From NCBI GenBank assembly GCA_903825105.1, contig CAIJZI010000009.1, forward strand, positions 216-64,215: DNA of 64,000 nucleotides, in the 5' to 3' direction. Both the position numbers and the translations under genes were made by a program. Every line of letters starts with the position of its first letter. The first letter of the stretch is position 1. The DNA comes from an uncultured bacterium (GTDB lineage Bacteria > Patescibacteriota > Minisyncoccia > Phycocordibacterales > Phycocordibacteraceae). Positions 17,213 to 52,630 of the stretch are shown here, piece after piece. Below the pieces are notes generated by a model. That model did not search any database. It was not told the origin of the DNA and saw only the letters and a list, made by a program, of their open reading frames with translations.

Positions 17213-17962
17213 ATGATTCGTAGCGTTGCTCGACCACAGGACACTGCTTGGCACCGTTCGCACCTCGCGCGACGCAGACGCACTTGGGTCATTATGACGG
17301 GCGTGATACTCGCCGCAGTGGTGCTCGCGCTCTTTGGCTATTTCGGCTCCGTCGGTTGGGGCGCGCTCGCTGAAGCGATTCTTCGCACCACCTATCGTCT
17401 CGCCTTCGCTTATTTCATCGCGCTCGTTATCGGTGTAATGGTCGCGCTTATCGTCGGTTGGCTCTCGCTCACCGACACACTTTTCCCTGTCTTCGATGTG
17501 CTCCAAAACATTCCTTCATTCGCCCTCATTCCCTTCTTTATTTATTTTCTCGGCTACACCGACCTGATGATTATTTTATTCTCGGTTACTTCTATTGTTT
17601 GGCCGATTCTCTTCGCCGTCCTCACCGCGATTAAGAGCGCACACCGCGATTTAAGCGACGCTGCCACCATTTTCGGCGCGCGAGGATTCCGCAGAGTTCC
17701 ATACTACCTCGCGCCTCTCTCTTACCCTTCAATAATTACGGGTTCTATTGTCGGTATCGCTATCGGCTGGGAGTCGATTATTGGTGCGGAGATTATCGCG
17801 AACACTTCTGGCTTCGGCGCATTTATAAAGACCGCGAGCGTCTCTGGGATAAATCAGGCAGCGATCGCGGGGATGTTCGTGATTCTTATTCTCGTCTTCG
17901 TGATTAATCGCCTTATCTGGGCTCCGCTTCTCGCGGAGAGCAGTCGTCGCTATGCAGAATAA
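17213..17962 (+). CDS. ABC transporter permease (binding-protein-dependent, TauC/SsuC-like)
   Basis: Six-TM permease with an EAA-like loop; start may be the internal Met near 17294. Confidence 0.7.
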   Translation: MIRSVARPQDTAWHRSHLARRRRTWVIMTGVILAAVVLALFGYFGSVGWGALAEAILRTTYRLAFAYFIALVIGVMVALIVGWLSLTDTLFPVFDVLQNIPSFALIPFFIYFLGYTDLMIILFSVTSIVWPILFAVLTAIKSAHRDLSDAATIFGARGFRRVPYYLAPLSYPSIITGSIVGIAIGWESIIGAEIIANTSGFGAFIKTASVSGINQAAIAGMFVILILVFVINRLIWAPLLAESSRRYAE

Positions 17963-18701
17963 CTCTACAAAAATCGCACTCGCCCTCTCGCGCGTTTCTG
18001 CGCGTTTTGAGGATGATAAAATGCGCGAAGTCCCGGTATTAAAAGAAATTTCTTTTTCTATCCCGACAGGAGGATTCGCCTCGATTATCGGCCCGTCGGG
18101 CGCGGGCAAATCGACTTTGATGCGCGTGGTCCTCGGCCTGATGAAAATAGAAAGTGGAACTATCGTTAGAAACTTCTCAAAGCCAGCAATGGTCTTCCAG
18201 AATTATGCGCTCTTCCCGTGGCTTTCTGCACTCGATAATGTCGCCTTTGGTCTTCGTATGAGTGGTGTGCCAAAAAAAGAGCGTGAAAAAATAGCGCGGG
18301 AAAAATTAAAAGAAGTTGGGCTCGAACATTTAGAGAAGCACTACCCAGCGGCGCTCTCGGGCGGTCAGCGTCAGCGCGTCGGGCTCGCACGCGCCCTCGC
18401 GATCTCGCCCGATCTCCTCATTATGGATGAACCATTTTCAAATCTCGACACTATCACCGCCGAAGCACTTAAAAAAGATTTATTAAAAATCTGGCGCGCC
18501 TATGGGATGACGATTTTAATGATTAATCACCTTATTCCCGACGCGATCGAACTCTCTGATCAGATTATAATAATGGGCGCTCGCCCTGGGAGCGTAAGAG
18601 AAATTATTTCTATAGACCTCCCGCGCCCGCGCGACACGCGCAGCGAGCGATTCTTTAAAGAAGTCGATTACTTAACGGGCGTCATCCGCGAGGTTTCCTG
18701 A
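17952..18701 (+). CDS. ABC transporter ATP-binding protein
   Basis: Walker A GPSGAGKST, signature LSGGQRQR, Walker B LLIMDEP. Confidence 0.85.
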   Translation: MQNNSTKIALALSRVSARFEDDKMREVPVLKEISFSIPTGGFASIIGPSGAGKSTLMRVVLGLMKIESGTIVRNFSKPAMVFQNYALFPWLSALDNVAFGLRMSGVPKKEREKIAREKLKEVGLEHLEKHYPAALSGGQRQRVGLARALAISPDLLIMDEPFSNLDTITAEALKKDLLKIWRAYGMTILMINHLIPDAIELSDQIIIMGARPGSVREIISIDLPRPRDTRSERFFKEVDYLTGVIREVS

Positions 18702-18762
18702 AAACAAAACAAGGTTAAACCTTAAATCCGAATTCCCCCAAGGTTTAACCTTGTTTTGTTTT
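18701..18762. terminator. Long inverted repeat between convergent genes, built from two AAGGTTWAACCTT palindromes; bidirectional terminator or REP-like element
   Basis: aaaacaaaacaaggttaaacctt ... aaggtttaaccttgttttgtttt: perfect 23-nt arms. Confidence 0.6.
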
Positions 18763-19542
18763 TTAAATTTCTATTTTAGAAAAGAAGTATGATCCGAGAC
18801 CTAGGAAGATCGCGGAGACCGCTAGGAGCACACCGATATCGAGCGCGAGAGGAAAGGCACTAACGCCAATGAGGAAATAACGCAGTGCGTCGATGCCGTA
18901 TGAAAGCGGGTCAAATCGCGCGACAAGCACCAACGCCGCTGGCGCGCTGTTGAGTGGGAAGAATGCTCCCGAGAGAAAGACGAGCGGCATAATAAGGAAG
19001 TTCATAATGAGCTGGAAGCCCTGCATATCCTTCAAAAGCGAGGCGACCATAATCCCAAGCGAGCTGAAGAGGAGTGCGACAAGAAGCATAATAATAATCG
19101 CCGGCGCGATACCCGCGAGAGAAAGGGGGCGGAATCCGGCGAGCGTCGCGATAAGAAGAACGAGAATACCTTGAGCGCTCGCGACCGTCGCTCCACCAAG
19201 CGTTCGACCAAACATAATCGAGAGGCGCGAAACTGGCACGACCATCGTCTCTTTTAAAAATCCAAATTGGCGATCCCAGATCACCTGCATCCCGTTAAAG
19301 ATGGCACTAAAGATAATCGACATACCGATAATCCCCGGCGCGATAAATTCTAGATAATTCCCCTGCCCCGCCTTCGCGAATACAGGTCCGAGCCCGTAGC
19401 CAAGCGCGACGAGAAAGAGAATCGGTTGGCCCAAAGAGCCGATGATACGACTCTTCGATCTGATAAATCGTTTTACTTCGCGCAGCCACATTTGATAGAT
19501 AACATTCATATATAAAAAAATTAATGACCTCTGCCGCGCCAC
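18763..19542 (-). CDS. ABC-2 family transporter permease
   Basis: Six-TM ABC-2 permease topology, overlapping the upstream ATPase gene. Confidence 0.7.
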   Translation of the reverse strand: MARQRSLIFLYMNVIYQMWLREVKRFIRSKSRIIGSLGQPILFLVALGYGLGPVFAKAGQGNYLEFIAPGIIGMSIIFSAIFNGMQVIWDRQFGFLKETMVVPVSRLSIMFGRTLGGATVASAQGILVLLIATLAGFRPLSLAGIAPAIIIMLLVALLFSSLGIMVASLLKDMQGFQLIMNFLIMPLVFLSGAFFPLNSAPAALVLVARFDPLSYGIDALRYFLIGVSAFPLALDIGVLLAVSAIFLGLGSYFFSKIEI

Positions 19543-32014: not shown

Positions 32015-33313
32015 ATGAATAGAACGATACAGAACTTTGAGGAGTTGGCTAAAAATGATTTGCGAAATGACGCGCTTTTAATCGCTGAAGCTGGATATGA
32101 AGCGATACAGGTCGGCAATGCATTAAAAAATAAATTACATATTGAAAACGGCGAGCTGACGGTCGGCGACAAAAAATATGCGCTTCTGAACCGGCGCATA
32201 TTTTTTGTCGGTGTTGGTAAGTGTGCGTTTGTCGCCGCTCACGCGGCGGAGGAATTATTTGAAGATTTTCTTACCAGCGGCATCGCACTCGATGTTTCAG
32301 ATGATGAAAAAAATTCTCTGAAAAAAATAGAAAAAAGTGTCGGCACCCACCCCCTCCCTAGCGAAGAAAATGTACAAGCAACAAGGAAAATTCTTGAACT
32401 TCTTTCGAATCTCACCCCTGATGATCTGGTTATTATGATCATTTCTGGCGGTGGTTCTACCCTCCTCTGCCAGCCGCCCGAAAAAATGACTTATGAAGAC
32501 GAGATCGCGATTTTTAAAGCACTCACCGCGCAGGGCGCGCCGATTCAAGAATTAAATGTCGTGCGTAAGCATTTGTCGCTCGCGCGCGGCGGCAATCTAG
32601 CAAAAGCTGCGTATCCGGCTGAAGTGCTTTCGCTCGTCGTCTCTGATGTGCCGGGAAATGATATTGAGTTTATTTCTTCAGGGCCGACCGTACTCGACTC
32701 GTCGACCATAGACGATGCAAAAAAGATTTTAGAAAAATATGCGGTCAATTCTGAAAAAATAGTTCTCCTCGAAACGCCCAAAGAAGAAAAGTATTTTGAA
32801 CGCGTATCGACACTTTTATTTTTATCGAGTCGCGACGCGCTTCTCTCGATGCTCCGGGAAGCGATTAAGCGAGGCTACGCTGCGCAGATAATTGATGAGA
32901 AATTTAAAGGTGAGGCGCGCGAGATTGGTAGATTGGTAACAGAAAAACTTCACGAGGCGACGCCTCGTGGTGTGATGCTTTACGCAGGCGAGAGCACCGT
33001 CACTTTTACTGAGGTTCAACCTCCGGAAAGTAAAGGTGGCAGAAATCAAGAAATAGCACTTTCTGCACTCGAGCATATAAAAGAAGACGAGATCGTCATC
33101 CCCTTTGCATCAGACGGGCACGACAACACCGACCACGCGGGCGCGATCGCAGATTCTACGACGCTTTTACATGCACAAGAAAAAAATCTTTCTCTTTCTG
33201 ACTATCTCGAGGCACACAATTCATATGAATTCTTTTCCACAACGAATGATGCGCTTATTACAGGCTATACTGGAAGCAATGTGGCAGATCTTATTATCGC
33301 GATTAAAAAATAA
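32015..33313 (+). CDS. Glycerate 2-kinase, MOFRL family (TtuD-like)
   Basis: DUF4147 plus MOFRL architecture (FVGVGKCA...ISGGGSTLL...ASDGHDNTDHAGA). Confidence 0.75.
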   Translation: MNRTIQNFEELAKNDLRNDALLIAEAGYEAIQVGNALKNKLHIENGELTVGDKKYALLNRRIFFVGVGKCAFVAAHAAEELFEDFLTSGIALDVSDDEKNSLKKIEKSVGTHPLPSEENVQATRKILELLSNLTPDDLVIMIISGGGSTLLCQPPEKMTYEDEIAIFKALTAQGAPIQELNVVRKHLSLARGGNLAKAAYPAEVLSLVVSDVPGNDIEFISSGPTVLDSSTIDDAKKILEKYAVNSEKIVLLETPKEEKYFERVSTLLFLSSRDALLSMLREAIKRGYAAQIIDEKFKGEAREIGRLVTEKLHEATPRGVMLYAGESTVTFTEVQPPESKGGRNQEIALSALEHIKEDEIVIPFASDGHDNTDHAGAIADSTTLLHAQEKNLSLSDYLEAHNSYEFFSTTNDALITGYTGSNVADLIIAIKK

Positions 33314-45244: not shown

Positions 45245-45622
45245 TTAATGAATCTGTAGTCCGGATGTTGGCGCACCGCCTGCTGGGCCAGAATTATTAC
45301 CGAAACTGAAGGTGCCGGTGAGAATATTCACGAGTCCCCAGACCGAGACCATCACGAAGAAGCCGACAAGCCCCCAGAGCATCAGGTTCTTACCCTTCTC
45401 TTTTACATCATCTCCACCGGACGCCCCGAGAATGAAGGTGTTAAAAGCGCCCCAAAGGAATACGATAAAGGCGATCGCGAAGATAATCGGAACGAGAATA
45501 TTATTAATCGTGCTGATGATAAACGAACCGACATCATTAAGATTGTTAATAGCAGCAGCTGATGAGACGAGCGGTAGCGCGAGCAGAGTGACAAGTGAGG
45601 AAATGGTAAGGGCTTTTTTCAT
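45245..45622 (-). CDS. VirB2/TrbC-like small membrane protein (array member 5)
   Basis: Signal peptide, ILVPIIFAIAFIVFLWGAF, DVKEKGKNLMLWGLVGF, then a Gly-rich tail. Confidence 0.5.
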   Translation of the reverse strand: MKKALTISSLVTLLALPLVSSAAAINNLNDVGSFIISTINNILVPIIFAIAFIVFLWGAFNTFILGASGGDDVKEKGKNLMLWGLVGFFVMVSVWGLVNILTGTFSFGNNSGPAGGAPTSGLQIH

Positions 45623-45704
45623 AAAATAAGTAATCTAATAACAGGTTAATTGTAGCTTTTATAAGAGACTGGTCAATGCGGTTTTTATCTATTTGTGGAT
45701 ATTA

Positions 45705-46253
45705 CTAGTTTGTACAACTGTCCGTACTTACACCGTCTGGACAAGTTCTACCATTGGGACAATAACAATCATTGTTCAGTATTATCCCGCGAGGAGTCTC
45801 AGTCACCGGCGGCTCAGCACAGGTATCTGTACTTGGATCACAGTATCCGCTACTGCACAAAATGTCATTGTAATTACACTTCACCCCATTCTGCAGATTG
45901 CCTGAAGCGCTCGAGGCAGGGCTGCCAGCAGCAGGAGTTTGGGTATTAGAATTTGTTGCCCCAGTATTAATAGTTGGGAACGCGGGGACATTGGTCGAGG
46001 TGAGCCCAAGCGTGCCCATAAATATCTGCACGATGCCCCAGACAGAGAAGAGAAGGACGAAGCCGACGATACCGTAAATGGCGAAGGTCTTCCCTTCTTT
46101 TTCTGCTTTATCTGAATCGTGAATAAAATACTTGTAAATCCCCCAGACGAATACTAAGAATGCGACCGAGATCAGAGCCGGTATTAAAATGCCGTTGATA
46201 ACCCCGACGACACTGCTCGCATATCCTTGAATATAAGTCGCATTTATTCCCAT
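45705..46253 (-). CDS. VirB2/TrbC-like membrane protein with Cys-rich C-terminal domain (array member 4)
   Basis: Conserved TM-KAEKEGK-TM core, then a Thr/Ser-rich linker and eight Cys. Confidence 0.5.
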   Translation of the reverse strand: MGINATYIQGYASSVVGVINGILIPALISVAFLVFVWGIYKYFIHDSDKAEKEGKTFAIYGIVGFVLLFSVWGIVQIFMGTLGLTSTNVPAFPTINTGATNSNTQTPAAGSPASSASGNLQNGVKCNYNDILCSSGYCDPSTDTCAEPPVTETPRGIILNNDCYCPNGRTCPDGVSTDSCTN

Positions 46254-46268
46254 AGAATGTTGTTATTT

Positions 46269-46619
46269 TTAAAATCTAAGCTGAATACTCGTGCCAGGTA
46301 TCGCGCTCGGCATCATCGGAGCTCCGTAGCCAGCGAGACCGAAGGTGTTCGCGACGACATTCACGAGCCCCCAAAGCGAGAGCATAATAGCGAAGCCAAC
46401 AATGCCCCAGAGCACGAGCTTATGGCCAGCTGCAACTGCTTTTTCATCGCCATTTGAATAAATGTATGCTTTATACACACCATAAATAAAAACGATAAAA
46501 GCGAGCGCGAAGATAACGGGAACTAAAATATAATTAATGACATATAAAATCTGATTGCCGAGATAACAGATATACCCGGTGCAGCCGTTCCCGATCGAGA
46601 CGCCAAAAGAAATGTTCAT
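46269..46619 (-). CDS. VirB2/TrbC-like small membrane protein (array member 3)
   Basis: ILVPVIFALAFIVFIYGVY...KLVLWGIVGF core. Confidence 0.5.
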   Translation of the reverse strand: MNISFGVSIGNGCTGYICYLGNQILYVINYILVPVIFALAFIVFIYGVYKAYIYSNGDEKAVAAGHKLVLWGIVGFAIMLSLWGLVNVVANTFGLAGYGAPMMPSAIPGTSIQLRF

Positions 46620-46638
46620 AAAATTAAGTATAGCCGAA

Positions 46639-46899
46639 TTAAGAGCCCGGGTTGATGCCGAGCGTGGATAACAAGAGATTCACGAAGCCCCAGACCGAGA
46701 AGAGTACGACCATGCCGAGAATGCCCCAGAAGGCGAAATCCTTCCCTTCTTTCATTTTTCCCTCATCGCCTTTATTGTTGAAGAAAAAATATTTTAAAAT
46801 CCCGTATAAGAACGAGAAGAATGCGAGTGTAGCGATAAAAGGTACGACAATCGTGTTCACGATCACGATGAGCTGATTAACGGTTTCAGCAAAGGTCAT
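46639..46899 (-). CDS. VirB2/TrbC-like small membrane protein (array member 2)
   Basis: Start at internal Met MTFAETV; core TIVVPFIATLAFF...KMKEGKDFAFWGILGM. Confidence 0.45.
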   Translation of the reverse strand: MTFAETVNQLIVIVNTIVVPFIATLAFFSFLYGILKYFFFNNKGDEGKMKEGKDFAFWGILGMVVLFSVWGFVNLLLSTLGINPGS

Positions 46900-46901
46900 A
46901 A

Positions 46902-47654
46902 TTATTGTTGTACCGTACTCGCGCCTGGGAAATAAGGGTTCGTGCCGCTTGGCACAGACGAGGTAGTGTCCCCGCCGGTCGAGAGCGAATTCACCGTCGC
47001 TTGGATCCCTATCGAGATCACCTGCGCGCCGAGGAGAATAAGCCCGCCGATGACGGTCCAGAGCAGAGCTTGACGAGCCTTTGTGATGTCTCCGGGAACA
47101 CCTTGTGCCTTCACGAACATCCACCCGACCCAGATCAACATAAAGACAACAACCATCGCGCCGATCTTCACGACGAATCCAAGAACTTCACTCACGAGTT
47201 TCGGGAGATCTGTTTTTGAACCAAGGGGATTGATGAGGGTGATTTTATCTCCAGACGGAACTGAAGCAGCATCAGTAGATTGATTGCCTTTAGTACCCAC
47301 AGCGTCGCTTGATTGATTGCCGCTCGTATTGGTAGCCCCAGATTTGACACAAACATTTTTGACGCAAGAAAGGCCGTTCGAGCAGGTGTCCTCGCACGCA
47401 TTTCCTTCATAAGCAGCTATACTACAAGCGCCTTTCACACACTGTGCACAACCAGAGATGCTTCCTTTGTTAGCAGAGGTGCACGCTATCCCGCAAGAAG
47501 AATTGTTTACACAAGTAAGGTCGTGGCCATTATACTGACCGGTACAAGGTTTACTCGCCGAACAGGCATCGCCTGGTTTTGAATCCGCAAATGCTATTGG
47601 CAGAAAAGAAAAGAATCCGACGATGATTACTAATGCGATAAAATATTTTTTCAT
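46902..47654 (-). CDS. Secreted Cys-rich protein with a C-terminal VirB2/TrbC-like TM module (array member 1)
   Basis: Signal peptide, ~20-Cys domain, Ser/Thr linker, then VVVFMLIWVGW...DITKARQALLWTVIGG and a Ser/Thr tail. Confidence 0.5.
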   Translation of the reverse strand: MKKYFIALVIIVGFFSFLPIAFADSKPGDACSASKPCTGQYNGHDLTCVNNSSCGIACTSANKGSISGCAQCVKGACSIAAYEGNACEDTCSNGLSCVKNVCVKSGATNTSGNQSSDAVGTKGNQSTDAASVPSGDKITLINPLGSKTDLPKLVSEVLGFVVKIGAMVVVFMLIWVGWMFVKAQGVPGDITKARQALLWTVIGGLILLGAQVISIGIQATVNSLSTGGDTTSSVPSGTNPYFPGASTVQQ

Positions 47655-48949
47655 TGTAAGAGGGCGCGAAGGGCGCTTTCGGCGCTCGAGAGCGCCATGG
47701 TTACCGAATATTTCCCGCTCACCACGCTGTTAATCATACTCGAGAAAACAGAATCAACATTTGTTCCTGATGGAGACAGCCAACCTTTGGTGTAGAGGGC
47801 TTCTGAATATGCCACTGCCAAGATAGGGTCAGAGGGCGTCTTCGCGAGCTGGCCTAGATTCGCGGGAGCGAGACCGGTCAGAGACGCTGAAGGGCCCTGC
47901 GCGTCGCTACTCGCGAAGAGCGTCGCGACTTGATATGCCCCAGAAGGGTTCTTCGCGCCGCGCGAAATCATAAATGAATAAAGTAGCCCATACGCGTTTT
48001 TAGTAGACCCCGTGAGCGGCTGCGGGAGTGGCGAGACCGCGAAGTCGAGATTTGGATTCGCTTTTTTAAAGTACACAGCTTCTGAAGCATATCCGATATA
48101 AAGCGCAAGATCGCCCGACAAAAACGATTGTTGCGAATCGGGGAGTGATGTATTCCAGGTGTAAGAAACCTTCGACGGGTCAGCGAATTGTGTGTAGAAA
48201 TTAAGCACTGCCTGCCCCGGCGGAGTTCCGCTCGAAGAATTCATACCGAGATCTGCGGTCATCAGTCCATTTGAAGCGTACGAAGAAATCGGCACGCCCG
48301 TTTGTAGAAATAACGACGAGACAATCGCGCGCGCGTTGCGCACATTGTCGTAGGCTCCAAGAGCGATAAGTCCGCGCGAGATCTGGCGAGAAGAAGTGAG
48401 AAGAGCGACATTCGGTACGAGGCCGGTTAGCGCTTCCCAAGAAGCGGGTGGTCGCGCGATACCATCTGATGAGAGGATTGCGCGATTCGAGAAGAGAACG
48501 AGTGGGTCAACGAGAAATGGCACACCATAATAACCGTCAGAAGCGGCAAGAAGACTTCCCTCATTCACAAAAGCGCTCGAGAAGGTTGACGCAGGGAGCG
48601 TCGCAGACGGTATTGGGGTAATAAACTTCGCGAGAGAAAATAAGTTTTCCTGCGAATCGAGAATGAGGTCTGGCGAATTCCCGGTCGCTATTGCTGATGC
48701 GAGCTCTGCGGGGAGTGTCGCTGGGTCTTTTTGTACATACGAAACATTCTTCAATTCTTTATTTGACTGCGTGGTAGTGGCGAGAACGGCGTCCATACTA
48801 CTACTCGGCAAGGTTCCCCAGATAACCACCGTCCCTATCGCATTACTGCTCGTACTTTTCCCCGAATAAGTAGCGAATACGAAGAGACCGATAAGTGCAC
48901 AGAGTCCGAACACACCGAGTAAAATACCTTGGAAGAGGGAAATTTTCAT
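47651..48949 (-). CDS. Extracellular solute-binding protein, family 1 (ABC-type sugar SBP-like)
   Basis: Signal anchor; VVIWGT and YYGVPF motifs resemble MalE-type SBPs; 4-nt overlap with the first array gene. Confidence 0.55.
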   Translation of the reverse strand: MKISLFQGILLGVFGLCALIGLFVFATYSGKSTSSNAIGTVVIWGTLPSSSMDAVLATTTQSNKELKNVSYVQKDPATLPAELASAIATGNSPDLILDSQENLFSLAKFITPIPSATLPASTFSSAFVNEGSLLAASDGYYGVPFLVDPLVLFSNRAILSSDGIARPPASWEALTGLVPNVALLTSSRQISRGLIALGAYDNVRNARAIVSSLFLQTGVPISSYASNGLMTADLGMNSSSGTPPGQAVLNFYTQFADPSKVSYTWNTSLPDSQQSFLSGDLALYIGYASEAVYFKKANPNLDFAVSPLPQPLTGSTKNAYGLLYSFMISRGAKNPSGAYQVATLFASSDAQGPSASLTGLAPANLGQLAKTPSDPILAVAYSEALYTKGWLSPSGTNVDSVFSSMINSVVSGKYSVTMALSSAESALRALLQ

Positions 48950-48953
48950 AAAA

Positions 48954-49490
48954 TCATGGTGCGTTAAATAATATACCGTAATGATGCGGGCCCGCGCGGA
49001 ATGACTTCACCTTATGAAATCCTCCATTTATAAAGAGCGCTTCTGCTTCGTGCTCGGTCACAACCTTTTTAGCATCAGGGCCCATACCGCTATAGCTCCC
49101 CGCCCAATCGATCATTATGAATTTTCCTTCGGGCTTTAACACGCGGCGAATCTCTGCGAGAAGTCCATAGCGATTCTCGATTTGGAAAAGAGTGTTGGAC
49201 AAGATAACTGCGTCGAGTGAGGCGTCGCGCAGGTGTGTCCCGCCAAGTTTCTCGATGTCACCCCAAACCGTGTCGATGGTGCTCTGATGCTTCGCGTGTG
49301 TATTTAATTTTAAATGTTTCAAGACATCTTCTTGAATATCGATCGCGTAGACCTTCCCCGTGTCGCCGACAATCGCTGCAGCCGCGCGCGCGTAGTGGCC
49401 ACTCCCGGTGCCGAAGTCGCCGACCTTCATCCCCTCGCGTAATCCTAAATGCAAGATGTTTTCTCGCGGCTCGCTAAATGTTCCTGCCAT
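48954..49490 (-). CDS. Class I SAM-dependent methyltransferase
   Basis: Motif I VGDFGTGSGHY and motif post-I AIDI; start chosen at the Met just after an upstream terminator. Confidence 0.7.
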   Translation of the reverse strand: MAGTFSEPRENILHLGLREGMKVGDFGTGSGHYARAAAAIVGDTGKVYAIDIQEDVLKHLKLNTHAKHQSTIDTVWGDIEKLGGTHLRDASLDAVILSNTLFQIENRYGLLAEIRRVLKPEGKFIMIDWAGSYSGMGPDAKKVVTEHEAEALFINGGFHKVKSFRAGPHHYGILFNAP

Positions 49491-49690
49491 ATATATAAAA
49501 ATAGCACGCCAAGAAGGCGTGCGGTGTGCAATCAACAGAAATTAGAGCCGTAGGGAGAGAATGATGGAATGACCAGCAATCTCTCCCTTTTTGCAGTCCT
49601 CGGCGCCAGGACTTACATACGGCACCCGCTTTCGGAAAATTGAGCAATTAGTGCCCAAGCGGTGATGCCCGATATGGGCTGGTACCCATG
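49491..49690 (-). promoter_or_regulatory. Structured ~200-nt 5' leader ending in an intrinsic terminator abutting the MTase start codon (riboswitch/attenuator-like)
   Basis: Putative promoter TTGCAT-16-TATTCT (49724-49697), several hairpins, terminator gcacgcc-ttctt-ggcgtgc plus U-run at 49493-49522. Confidence 0.35.
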
Positions 49691-49809
49691 ATGGGCAGAA
49701 TATCACACAACAAAAAATATGCAACCTTTAAACGAGGTTATAGTAAAAAGGTTTAACCTTACTTTTACTGAGGTTCAACCTTGTTAAAATTCCTTGTTAA
49801 CATGACTAA

Positions 49810-49918
49810 AAATAAAAACCGCGAGGGGTTGATTCCTCGCGGTGGCTCGTATTTCTCCACATGTCCCGTTCCCTCGCCTTTATCGCGTGAGAAAAGCAGA
49901 AGTCAGCCACTCTCCTGC
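49810..49918 (-). ncRNA. Candidate ~110-nt small RNA downstream of gyrA
   Basis: Own promoter TTGTACA-17-TATTATAAT (49957-49925); ends ccgcgagg-aatcaacc-cctcgcgg plus U11; no ORF. Confidence 0.45.
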
Positions 49919-49988
49919 TCGTTCATTATAATAACCACAGATCTGCCTAATGTACAAGATTAAACCTTTTTTAACAGCGGCGGGAAAT

Positions 49989-50040
49989 AAAAAATCGCGA
50001 GGAGAGAAGCGGGCCTCGGGGAGGGGCGGGGGCTTCTCTC
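49989..50040 (-). terminator. Rho-independent terminator of gyrA
   Basis: gagagaagc...gcttctctc stem with a GC-rich inner hairpin, followed by UUUUUU. Confidence 0.65.
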
Positions 50041-50161
50041 GCACGCGATCGGGGTCGGCTGTCGTCAATAGAGGGAGAACAGGCAAATGTTTCCTCGGTG
50101 ACGGATATCCAAACCCGTCTGAGTATCATAGCACAACCCCCTAAAAAATGCAAGCCCTAAA

Positions 50162-52630
50162 TTACAAAGCCACCATTGAGGCAATAGAGTCGCCCGGGTA
50201 GAGACGCATCACGCGGACGCCCTGCGTCGCGCGCGAGAGCGAAGGAATTTCTGCCACGCCAGTGCGAATCACCTGCCCTTTTTTAGAAATGACGACGAGC
50301 TCTTCTTCTTCGAGATTGCCCGCAACAATCTTCGCACCGATAATCTCACCCGTCTTCGGCGTCACTGCCGCTGTTTTAATCCCCGAGCCGCCGCGACCCT
50401 GCACTTTGTATTCAGAAATTTTTGTTCTCTTGCCGTATCCCTTACTCATCACGACAAGAAGCGACGCGTCTTTAGCGGCGGCAGAGATCACTTCTGCCGA
50501 GACAACCTTGTCGCCTTTTTTCACGCTCATACCGCGCACGCCGCCAGCGGTGCGACCCATCTCGCGTACATCCTCGGCGTCAAATCGAATCGACTGCCCT
50601 TTTGAAGTGACAATCGAGACGGTGTCGCCTTCTCCGGCGTGATTGGCAGAAACGAGTCGGTCTCCTGATTTCAAATTAATCGCGATGATGCCCGAGCGGC
50701 GCACATCGGAGAATGACTTCGCCGCAACACGCTTCACTACACCCTCTTCAGTAACAAATACGATTGACGAAGCGTCGAGGGCAGCACCCTTCGGCACCGG
50801 CAATATCGAAGTCACCTTTTCATCACCCGCGAGCGCGAGGAAGTTCATAATGCTCTTCCCCTTCGTCGCGCGCTTGCCTTCTGGGATTTCATACATCTTC
50901 AGTTGATATGCTTTGCCGAAGTCGGTGAAGAAGAGGAGGTCACTGTGTGCATTCGTCACGAGGAAATTTGTCACAATGTCTTCTTCTTTTGTCGCGATAT
51001 CAACAACGCCGACGCCGCCGCGCTTCTGCTTTTTATATTCAGTCGGATTTGTTCTCTTCACATACCCGCCTTGGGTCAAAACGAGCATCGACTCTTCGTC
51101 CGGTACCATATCTTCAACAGAAATATTCTGCACGCCGCCTCTCACGATACGCGTGCGACGATCATCGCCATACTTCTCTGCCAATTCTTCTAATTCCCTT
51201 TTCACAACAGCGAGAATCTTCTTCGGCGAGGAGAGAATATCTTTCAACTTCGCGATAATAGCCTGCACTTCAGCGAGTTCATCCTCAAGTTTCTTTCTTT
51301 CAAGCCCCGCGAGTTTCGAGAGGCGCATCTCGAGAATCGCCGTCGCTTGGAGAATTGAAAAGCCAAATTTCTTTTGAAGCGCAAGTGATGCAGAAGGAAT
51401 ATCCACCGCCTTTTTAATAATCGCGATAACTTCGTCGATGTGATCAAGCGCTTTACAGAGCCCGAAGAGAATGTGCTCACGCGCTTCTGCTTGGCGGAGA
51501 TCAAACTCCGTTCGACGCTTCACCACCTCCTGACGATGCGAAACAAAGTGCCCGAGCATCCCGACAAGCGAGAGCATTTCTGGCACACCATCGACGAGGG
51601 CGAGCATATTGTAGTGGAAGGTGCTCTCGAGCTCGGTGTGTTTATAGAGTGCATTCAAAACAGCCTGAGGATGTGCCGAACCTTTAAGCTCAACCACGAC
51701 ACGGATATCGGTCGTCGACTCATCGCGCAAGTCGCGAATGCCTTCGAGCTTTTTTTCTTGTACTAAATCGGCAATGCGAGAAATAAGTTCGCTCTTATTC
51801 ACACGATACGGAATCGAGGTGATAATAATGCTCGAATCTTTTTTCCCATCATCAACAATCTCGGCTTCGCCGCGCACCACGACCGGCCCTTTGCCCGAGC
51901 TGTACGCGTGTTTAATATCTGCCTGATTAAAGGCGACACCACCAAGTGGGAAATCTGGGCCTTTCACAAATTGGAGAAGGTCGTCGGTCGTCGCGTCAGG
52001 ATTTTCGATAAGATGCACAGCGGCGGTAACCACTTCGCGCAAGTTGTGTGGCGGGATATTCGTCGCCATACCGACCGCGATGCCGAGCGTTCCGTTTAAA
52101 AGAAGGTTCGGGAGAGCTGACGGAAGAACATGTGGCTCTTCGCGCGTCGCGTCATAGTTCGGATTCCATTTCACCGTCTCTTTTTCAAGATCATTTAACA
52201 GTGATTCGCCGATACGCGACATCTTCGCTTCGGTATAACGCATCGCGGCTGGAGAATCGCCGTCGATCGAACCGAAGTTACCTTGACCGATTACGAGCGG
52301 ATAGCGATAGGAGAACTCCTGCGCCATCTTCGCCATCGAGTCGTACACCGCGGTATCGCCGTGCGGATGATATTTACCGAGCACTTCGCCGACGACCGTT
52401 GCCGACTTTCGGAACTTCCCTCCCGGCACAAGCCCCATATCCTTCATCGCGTAGAGAATTCTGCGATGTACCGGCTTCAACCCGTCGCGCACATCAGGCA
52501 AAGCGCGTGCAGTAATAACGGTCATCGCGTAGTCGATATACGACTTCCGCATCTCAGCGACAATCGGCTGATTAATCACATTCGCCGCTATCGCAGTCAC
52601 TACTTCAGGATTTTTATCTTTCGAAGCCAT
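50162..52630 (-). CDS. gyrA: DNA gyrase subunit A
   Basis: Active-site region AMRYTEAKM (Tyr) and QRDR-like [13 protein letters not shown]; 822 aa with C-terminal beta-pinwheel repeats. Confidence 0.95.

Follow-up and report, generated by a model that had tools for sequence, protein, structure and literature searches.

Does the 671-nt spacer between gyrA and the gene that follows it, encoding a class I S-adenosylmethionine (SAM)-dependent methyltransferase, act as a regulatory leader of that gene? The question arises in the window analysed here, a 64-kb stretch (64,000 nt) of contig CAIJZI010000009.1 (assembly GCA_903825105.1, an uncultured member of the Patescibacteriota), where an initial annotation had described a small RNA after gyrA and a transcription-attenuating riboswitch before the methyltransferase. 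In the minus-strand reading, the spacer contains no credible open reading frame (ORF): among its ORFs of at least 20 aa, none is gene-like and none has a homolog in relatives. Comparative analysis points to a different architecture. In this Kaiserbacteria-like genome (candidate phyla radiation (CPR), Paceibacterota), the spacer is probably a lineage-specific assembly of several separate transcription units and not a single regulatory leader. It ends in a conserved terminator-promoter module from which the methyltransferase would be transcribed as a leaderless mRNA, and it carries a small RNA, RNA B, that likely belongs to a structured RNA family, designated K, present in the same spacer of relatives.

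Related loci were retrieved by searching with the methyltransferase, a Pfam Methyltransf_11 protein (3.8e-18) that matches no specific NCBIfam family above its cutoff and whose alignments with homologs begin at residue 1. The set comprises 80 genome and 80 metagenome loci (70–81% identity; individual loci are given below as L numbers) from Kaiserbacteria, Paceibacterota or related metagenome-assembled genomes (MAGs); the genome and metagenome scans revealed no closer relative, that is, none above 81% methyltransferase identity, and a look-up of the exact protein returned a single ENA contig of 1.6 kb. The gene order gyrA, methyltransferase, solute-binding protein gene is that of the window and is conserved across the related loci. 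The spacer is extremely variable, ranging from 49 to 3784 nt in the 65 loci that possess both genes among the first 80, with only 49–114 nt in nine loci. The interior of the window's own spacer has no match in the 160 loci by blastn, nhmmer, tblastx or tblastn.

Against this variability, alignment of the 100 nt preceding the methyltransferase reveals one conserved block, restricted to the last ∼48 nt. The block consists, in order, of TGTTGATTG, a GC-rich hairpin, the motif (C)RTGSTATTTTATAGGY and the ATG. This module is found in 130 of the 160 loci, 115 of which have a core of exactly 41 nt. It represents essentially the whole spacer in the nine loci where the spacer is shortest, and where the spacer measures 49–55 nt its hairpin is the sole hairpin after gyrA. 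The hairpin of the window (GCACGCC-TTCTT-GGCGTGC) is followed by TATTTTTATATAT and then the ATG at 49490, and the scan tool calls it terminator-like, as it does the homologous hairpin of L068 (spacer of 49 nt). No Shine-Dalgarno (SD)-like motif precedes the methyltransferase ATG.

The hairpin carries the marks of an RNA structure. Across 81 distinct sequences, 78.8% of cells are paired, compared to 69.8% in shuffles, and the covariation score is 0.297 versus 0.176, a value reached by 0 of 500 shuffles. Both sides change in nine of the 11 pairs, and a second register, offset by two columns, occurs as well. Mismatches are strongly asymmetric, with 102 G.T versus 14 A.C (48 versus 14 when the doubtful U12.G36 pair is left out), and the predicted fold is more stable on the sense strand in 47 sequences and on the antisense strand in 12. 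Taken together, the covariation, the G.U/A.C asymmetry and the sense-strand bias of the fold show by comparison a hairpin that appears to be selected at the RNA level, on the strand of gyrA. Its probable role is that of a terminator or insulator of upstream transcription. The flanks may also pair, UGUUGAU with AUUUUAUA; these columns are invariant and hence give no covariation signal.

The T-rich tail of the hairpin appears to have a function of its own. The window reads TGcTATTTT, then 7 nt, then ATG, and across the relatives 77 loci have 6 nt, 17 have 7 nt and six have 8 nt between the -10 hexamer (TATTTT) and the first downstream ATG. The consensus TGSTATTTT would thus be an extended -10 element, with the ATG at the predicted transcription start and a leaderless methyltransferase mRNA. 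The proposed sequence of events is that the GC-rich hairpin would stop or insulate transcription arriving from gyrA, from small RNAs or from inserted genes; that the tail following it would serve as the extended -10 (TGnTATTTT) of the methyltransferase promoter; and that RNA polymerase would start 6–7 nt later at the A of the ATG, producing an mRNA for which an SD is unneeded. The initial annotation had correctly noted a U-tract running into the ATG without an SD, which it read as the geometry of an attenuator. These features are explained by a leaderless promoter, without attenuation: since the T-tract appears to be a conserved extended -10, the methyltransferase would have a promoter of its own, located after the hairpin.

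Three other interpretations of the conserved motifs were considered and rejected. TTGATT is not a plausible -35 box, its spacer being 26–27 bp, and 57 bp in L037. A sigma-54 reading (TGG-N10-GC) fails on inspection, as the positions vary. A coding N-terminal extension, starting at the consensus TTG within TGTTGATTG in frame with the ATG, is incompatible with the spacing of 6, 7 or 8 nt between -10 and ATG; furthermore, the implied amino acids are unconserved, and it is the pairing of the hairpin that is conserved instead. Structurally, the module resembles intrinsic terminators, including the terminator-promoter overlaps of compact genomes, in its GC-rich stem, U-rich tail and RNA-level selection. 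It differs from them in the 3–4 non-U bases that its consensus places between stem and U-run, and in flanks far more conserved than a plain terminator needs.

The arrangement proposed for the methyltransferase recurs elsewhere in the window. Among 51 ATG-start ORFs, TAnnnT occurs 5–8 nt before the ATG in 16 (31%), compared to 4.5% of the internal ATGs that served as control, and the extended form TGnTAnnnT, the usual promoter form in the window, in seven (14%) versus 0.26%. An SD-like motif precedes only one of the 51 (2%). This suggests that leaderless mRNAs are widespread in this genome. Such mRNAs are well described in Deinococcus and in archaea. Start codons located at the transcription start, right after a -10 box, are also well described in Actinobacteria such as Mycobacterium tuberculosis (Cortes et al. 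2013, as cited in PMC12641261). The case presented here resembles these leaderless mRNAs in the -10 hexamer 6–7 nt before the ATG, the lack of an SD and the genome-wide occurrence. It differs from them in a predicted promoter of the extended -10 type that is fused to a conserved, covarying hairpin whose tail forms the -10, and in an invariant TGTTGATTG 27 bp upstream.

Upstream of the module, the initial annotation had placed a second promoter and a highly structured leader of ∼200 nt ending in the hairpin. Both elements are present. Promoter C (TTGCAT-16-TATTCT, 49724-49697) has a TGa preceding its hexamer, giving the extended -10 TGaTATTCT (49705-49697), and the candidate transcript, leader C, folds with z=-5.4 relative to shuffled controls. 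The hairpins listed for it (CCCAUCAUGGG, GCCCAUAUCGGGC and GGGAGAGA...UCUCUCCC) are found, the energy-minimal fold fusing the first two into one longer hairpin. The riboswitch itself was not recovered. An Infernal search (cmscan) of 48900-50700 against the Rfam 15 families at E<=10 returned no riboswitch, the S-adenosylhomocysteine (SAH) and SAM classes included, and three noise matches (mir-9186, L20_leader and Thermales-rpoB); the whole 64-kb window compared to Rfam at gathering thresholds yields ten tRNAs only. The segment GCGCCGAGGACUGCAA, which had been likened to the core of the SAH riboswitch, is present, and the same search gives no match to RF01057 at E<=10. The putative aptamer (49545-49700, ∼150 nt) has no match in the 160 syntenic loci by blastn, nhmmer or tblastx, and the nine loci with spacers of 49–114 nt have no room for a leader. 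The locus shares with SAH (RF01057) and SAM riboswitches a structured 5' region before a SAM-dependent methyltransferase and a terminator-like hairpin at its end. It differs from them in lacking a covariance-model match at E<=10 and conservation in relatives, and in that the predicted promoter of the downstream gene sits inside the 'terminator'. Leader C ends at the module, and the module appears before the methyltransferase in most relatives whatever adjoins it upstream. Leader C is best seen as a lineage-specific unit in a mosaic, either a functional small RNA (sRNA) or a remnant; it counts as one more unit because the spacer is a hot spot for mobile DNA, as described below.

Beyond the module, the spacers of relatives contain a conserved RNA. 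A non-coding block of ∼170 nt was detected by nhmmer right after gyrA in several of them, and 13 copies served to build a covariance model, R1. At E<1e-3, this model recovers 19 copies (e.g. L045, 3784-3945), distributed over 18 loci and without exception within the spacer and on the gyrA strand. These RNAs, which constitute family K, are 130–270 nt long and share a defined layout. A -10-like box occupies model positions 1–7 (TATATT, TAATAT, TGATAA and similar). It is followed by a P1/P2 hairpin, whose loop forms a pseudoknot with the 5 nt immediately preceding helix CCGCGAGG/CCUCGCGG, then by a P3 hairpin with the conserved loop GAAAUUCUAGAUAAAGUA (...UCUAGAUAAAG...), a GGCGGAC segment, the sequence-conserved helix CCGCGAGG/CCUCGCGG enclosing an insert of 3 to ∼150 nt, and a U-tract. 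Three members possess a separate terminator instead of the U-tract at the helix, so that helix CCGCGAGG/CCUCGCGG is part of the RNA proper.

Covariation strongly supports this structure. In the nested helices, 76.3% of cells are paired, compared to 66.1% after shuffling, with a score of 0.418 versus 0.251 that 0 of 500 shuffles reach, and the scores of slid controls are far below this. P3 is 88% paired, each of its five pairs showing changes on both sides. The pseudoknot covaries as well, UGACC pairing with GGUUG, GGUCA or GGUUA, UGGCC with GGCUG, and GGGCU with GGCCC (permutation test, 0 of 2000). K has no match in Rfam 15 (16 + 8 related loci searched) and was not found in viral contigs, where 25 exact 17-mer matches are attributable to chance, none fitting the model. 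Signal recognition particle RNA, RNase P RNA, 6S RNA, transfer-messenger RNA and T-box were rejected as identities, as no signature was seen by eye and no Rfam match was obtained. No single type of gene follows K: the methyltransferase, a Y1 transposase and a PaaX-like gene, the last on one strand or the other, all occur in that position, and a gene for the PaaX/Cas2-like protein adjoins K in eight of the 18 loci with K. Such variation in the following gene marks K as a stand-alone RNA and not the leader of one gene class. This would be consistent with a trans-acting or protein-binding RNA. K resembles orphan structured RNA motifs in being lineage-restricted and conserved, with covarying helices, a pseudoknot, its own promoter and a terminator; the Weinberg/Breaker motif sets reportedly include such comparative-genomics motifs, among them pseudoknotted candidates of unknown function. 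Unlike these motifs, K is absent from Rfam 15, is confined to a single hypervariable spacer with a variable next gene, and has a sequence-conserved closing helix that doubles as terminator in most copies, not all.

Two observations on the same spacers stand beside the K family. In L059, L047, L148 and L081, an inverted repeat, TTCTTATC-N16-GATAAGAA, lies just upstream of the PaaX_M/Cas2-like gene and is likely an operator; the P3 loop of K (UUCUAGAUAAAG) looks like this repeat in compressed form, maybe by coincidence. A second conserved non-coding block, J (GCGAGCGCACCAAAAGTC...GAGCTTTTTGAGGCGCTCG), distinct from K, occupies the first ∼125 nt after gyrA in L037 (3055-3180), L071, L055 and L058, with 81–87% identity between loci and no Rfam match at gathering thresholds.

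In the window itself, the best candidate for a K member is RNA B. The initial annotation had proposed here a strong minus-strand promoter driving an ORF-less RNA of ∼110 nt after gyrA, and both proposals are supported. The promoter TTGTACA-17-TATTATAAT is present at 49957-49925 (the scan tool lists it as TGTACA-17-TATTAT), and the RNA is predicted to be an independent unit with its own promoter and terminator and with probable homology to the K RNAs of the same spacer. Its terminator, called by the scan tool, reads ACCGCGAGG/CCTCGCGGT (49843-49818) followed by TTTTTATTTTT; the hairpin is as described, the pure U11 tail being in fact U5-A-U5. The RNA folds with z=-3.2 versus shuffled controls. 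When R1 is run over both strands of the window with filters off, RNA B is the top match, spanning the full model length (49934-49833, minus strand) at 15.9 bits, with E∼0.018 over the 128 kb searched and 1.9e-4 within the spacer only, both E-values being rough owing to a shortened calibration. Its -10 aligns with the conserved -10 of the K model, its closing helix and U-tract are the same as those of K, and its pseudoknot, UGGCU:AGCCA, adjoining CCGCGAGG, is kept through compensatory changes. On this basis, RNA B likely belongs to family K as a short, diverged member.

A further unit, A, lies outside the segment that the initial annotation had described. It begins 8 nt after the gyrA stop codon and would produce an RNA of ∼134 nt (fold z=-4.8). 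The terminator that had been assigned to gyrA exists; it is actually the end of unit A. This terminator (...CUCUCCUCGCGA-U6AUUU) is paralogous to the one that closes RNA B, with 83% identity over 18 nt, and promoter A (50161-50143) is paralogous to promoter C, whose -35 region it matches with 79% identity over 19 nt. Unit A has a K-like layout by eye only, without a K-model match, and may be a degenerate K paralog. Leader C has no K-model match either; as R1 matches neither, RNAs A and C were rejected as K members.

The content of the spacers suggests how such a mosaic could arise. Inserts in relatives include PaaX_M/Cas2-like regulators (193 aa), IS200-like Y1 transposases (219–230 aa), a SAM decarboxylase and other genes. 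Perfect palindromes are a recurrent companion: in the relatives, 14 of the 15 perfect copies of ACAAGGTTnAACCTTGT lie within 400 nt of a Y1_Tnp gene, which they flank, and all are in the spacer. The window carries this same palindrome in a perfect 13-bp form, AAGGTTnAACCTT, in five copies in 64 kb (7541, 18711, 18740, 20665 and 49748) versus ∼0.004 expected, and its core also occurs at 33012 and 49771. The segments 49956-49971 and 49745-49760 form an inverted pair of 16 nt, 94% complementary and 195 nt apart, bracketing the RNA B unit. The 64-kb window contains neither a Y1 transposase nor a PaaX-like gene. Since no Y1_Tnp gene is present, the window palindromes are considered orphan copies resembling repetitive extragenic palindromes (REPs) or miniature inverted-repeat transposable elements (MITEs). 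The likeness to IS200/IS605 elements and to REPs with their associated tyrosine transposases (REP/RAYT) lies in the perfect palindromes flanking Y1_Tnp genes in relatives and in the orphan window copies, three of them in the spacer; the difference is a 64-kb window without a transposase gene. Altogether, the spacer is an apparent hot spot for insertion of mobile DNA. The tRNA genes found within the spacers of L071 (3651-3723) and L037 (3273-3373, minus) are a further sign that it takes varied inserts.

Traces of insertion were also observed at the module. In L003 (3691), L013 (2798), L103 (998), L004 (1228), L057 (2861), L063 (1848) and L156 (60), the combination of TGTTGATTG and hairpin is found once more, several hundred nt before the methyltransferase, with unrelated DNA right after the hairpin, a pattern that suggests insertions targeting the hairpin. 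In L094 (2509-2695), L053 (128-314), L157 (181-367) and L104 (2834-3001), insertions of ∼125–186 nt with terminal inverted repeats (e.g. CCCGGTAGGACAACTTGGCAT...ATGCCAAGTAGTCCTCACCGGG) separate the leaderless promoter precisely from the ATG, which is duplicated in the process, and give rise to a 5' untranslated region (UTR) that forms a long hairpin.

Several points weigh against the interpretation of separate units closed by a terminator-promoter module. The 3–4 nt (RUGS) separating stem and U-run in the consensus are suboptimal for an intrinsic terminator. L018, L056 and L079 keep the 41-nt length and both flanks around a decayed hairpin, which hints at a spacing constraint at the DNA level, outside the model. 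The invariant TGTTGATTG precedes the -10 by 26–27 bp, a distance too great for a sigma-70 -35 box. Translation of read-through transcripts would still be possible, given that SDs are almost never used by the genes here. RNA B reaches only 15.9 bits, and R1 skipped its P3 by a local end, leaving unaligned a hairpin whose loop is only GAUAAAG where K has GAAAUUCUAGAUAAAGUA. It is a prediction that methyltransferase transcription begins at the ATG, that the hairpin terminates transcription and that RNAs A, B and C are expressed. Finally, when the terminator is blocked in silico, its 5' arm pairs elsewhere in leader C, as an antiterminator would. This last behaviour is what the riboswitch explanation calls for, in which promoter C drives a ∼200-nt leader with a SAH- or SAM-type aptamer that toggles terminator and antiterminator and so controls the methyltransferase. 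The strong structure of leader C and the hairpin and U-tract directly before a SAM-dependent methyltransferase also fit that explanation, which is nevertheless very improbable. No Rfam riboswitch family is matched at E<=10; the aptamer part is missing in all 160 relatives, down to the shortest spacers; the hairpin and T-tract form a module kept independently of any leader, one that reads as a leaderless promoter; the terminator stem has a pairing probability near 1.0, the best alternative fold being 12.4 kcal/mol worse; and the operator-like or insertion sequence (IS)-end palindromes upstream of promoter C point to a history of mobile DNA. The TGTTGATTG-hairpin module could also be mainly a DNA site, either an operator or a target or attachment site for hairpin-recognising mobile elements (IS200/IS605-type Y1 elements, MITEs), its resemblance to a terminator and a promoter then being secondary. 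ISDra2, of the IS200/IS605 family, targets TTGAT. The adjoining spacer is hypervariable and carries Y1_Tnp genes with end palindromes, foreign DNA begins directly after the hairpin in the extra copies, other insertions fall precisely between -10 and ATG, and the 41-nt length outlives the hairpin. A DNA site remains unlikely as the main function, because the stem maintains its pairing under free sequence variation and accepts G.U on the sense strand alone, a signature of RNA that is unlike a protein-binding site or a cruciform. The fixed 6–7 nt between -10 and ATG and the TGn motif fit the genome-wide leaderless pattern, and the module is intact in loci without any insertion.

RNAs A, B and C could instead be non-functional, decayed remnants of earlier gene cassettes and mobile elements, of which just promoters, terminators and end palindromes would persist, the likeness of B to K then reflecting shared terminator and promoter debris. 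The interior of the spacer is unique to this lineage, the similarities of promoter A to promoter C and of terminator A to terminator B suggest duplication and rearrangement, IS-end palindromes bracket unit B, and the K-model evidence is confined to the low score of B. Remnants are nonetheless a rather doubtful explanation, since K itself is clearly under structural selection, B retains the K pseudoknot through a double compensatory change together with the 9-nt loop of P1/P2, the GAUAAAG loop and the -10 position, and units A, B and C all fold far better than shuffled controls. It is also possible, if quite unlikely, that the K elements, RNA B and perhaps A among them, are cis-acting structures of the gyrA 3' UTR that stabilise the mRNA or are the source of a processed sRNA. 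On the strand of gyrA, ten of the 19 K copies have their start at the gyrA stop codon or no more than 20 nt away, and in those loci K ends in the first terminator after gyrA. Such a role is at odds with the -10-like box conserved at the very start of the K model, with the other K copies that follow PaaX-like or Y1_Tnp genes or lie just before the methyltransferase, and with RNA B, which has a full -35 and -10 and is situated ∼240 nt beyond gyrA, behind another terminator. The interpretation retained here is therefore that of a lineage-specific spacer with several transcription units, of which RNA B is the probable K member.

A more far-reaching possibility, put forward as speculation with little likelihood of being correct, is that the gyrA-methyltransferase junction of Kaiserbacteria is a dedicated 'landing pad'. 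The module would at once terminate upstream transcription, supply the leaderless promoter to any gene that follows and serve as the recognition hairpin of IS200-type elements or MITEs. K would be a new class of pseudoknotted regulatory RNA, binding a ligand or a protein (e.g. the adjacent PaaX/Cas2-like protein) and travelling with the insertions; A, B and possibly C would then be diverged K derivatives, two or three in tandem in the window. For genome annotation, the retained interpretation has a more immediate consequence. In CPR genomes, which rarely use an SD, a hairpin and T-tract abutting an ATG is more likely a terminator plus a leaderless extended -10 promoter than an attenuator, which bears on the annotation of gene starts and regulation in thousands of Patescibacteria MAGs. 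To our knowledge, almost no regulatory RNAs have been described in this phylum, and for Kaiserbacteria or Patescibacteria the literature search found no paper that deals with leaderless mRNAs or with RNA motifs. The present analysis adds a candidate family, K, with good covariation and a pseudoknot and absent from Rfam 15, and a clear case in which a conserved module bordering a hypervariable insertion hot spot would serve both as terminator and as promoter. It overturns no current ideas and represents an incremental gain, unless a new function emerges for K. The coordinates of the features are collected in Table 1.

Table 1. Predicted features of the gyrA-methyltransferase spacer and its flanking genes (window coordinates)
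Feature	Position	Strand	Details
gyrA	52630-50162	minus	stop codon 50164-50162
Unit A	49985-50153	minus	promoter TTGCAT-17-TGcTATGAT 50153-50125; terminator near 49985
Degenerate third palindrome copy	49956-49971		AAGATTAAACCTTTTT; overlaps the -35 of promoter B
Promoter B	49925-49957	minus	-35 TTGTACA 49957-49951, 17 nt, TATTATAAT 49933-49925; start near 49921-49918
Small RNA B	49808-49921	minus	∼114 nt; likely a short, diverged K member
RNA B P1/P2 hairpin	49920-49912 with 49902-49894	minus	9-nt loop AGUGGCUGA
RNA B P3-like hairpin	49892-49885 with 49877-49870	minus	loop GAUAAAG
RNA B pseudoknot	49909-49905 with 49847-49843	minus	UGGCU with AGCCA; 5 Watson-Crick pairs
RNA B closing helix/terminator	49842-49835 with 49826-49819	minus	CCGCGAGG with CCUCGCGG; U5AU5 49818-49808
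Two palindromes, IS200/IS605-end or REP-like	49745-49786		AAGGTTTAACCTT 49748-49760, AGGTTCAACCTT 49771-49782; between RNA B terminator and promoter C
Promoter C	49697-49724	minus	-35 TTGCAT 49724-49719, 16 nt, TATTCT 49702-49697
Leader C	49497-49690	minus	transcript candidate of ∼190 nt; three hairpin domains; ends at the conserved hairpin
Terminator-promoter module	49488-49537	minus	TGTTGATTG 49537-49529; hairpin 49522-49504; -10 49506-49498; ATG 49490-49488
Class I SAM-dependent methyltransferase	48954-49490	minus	178 aa; ATG 49490-49488

Elsewhere in the window, a larger hairpin at 18702-18762 (AAAACAAAACAAGGTTAAACCTT...AAGGTTTAACCTTGTTTTGTTTT) has a copy of the palindrome as each of its arms; located between the convergent genes 17952-18701 (plus) and 18763-19542 (minus), it resembles a bidirectional terminator. 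The spacer (49761-49781) shares 21 identical nt, ACTTTTACTGAGGTTCAACCT, with 33002-33022, inside the ORF 32015-33313, and the shared stretch includes a palindrome half-site. Downstream of the methyltransferase on the minus strand, 45245-47654 contains four to five tandem small ORFs with a common C-terminal hydrophobic motif (...LWGLVGF..M.S.WGLVN.L...), which look like paralogous small membrane or pilin-like proteins.

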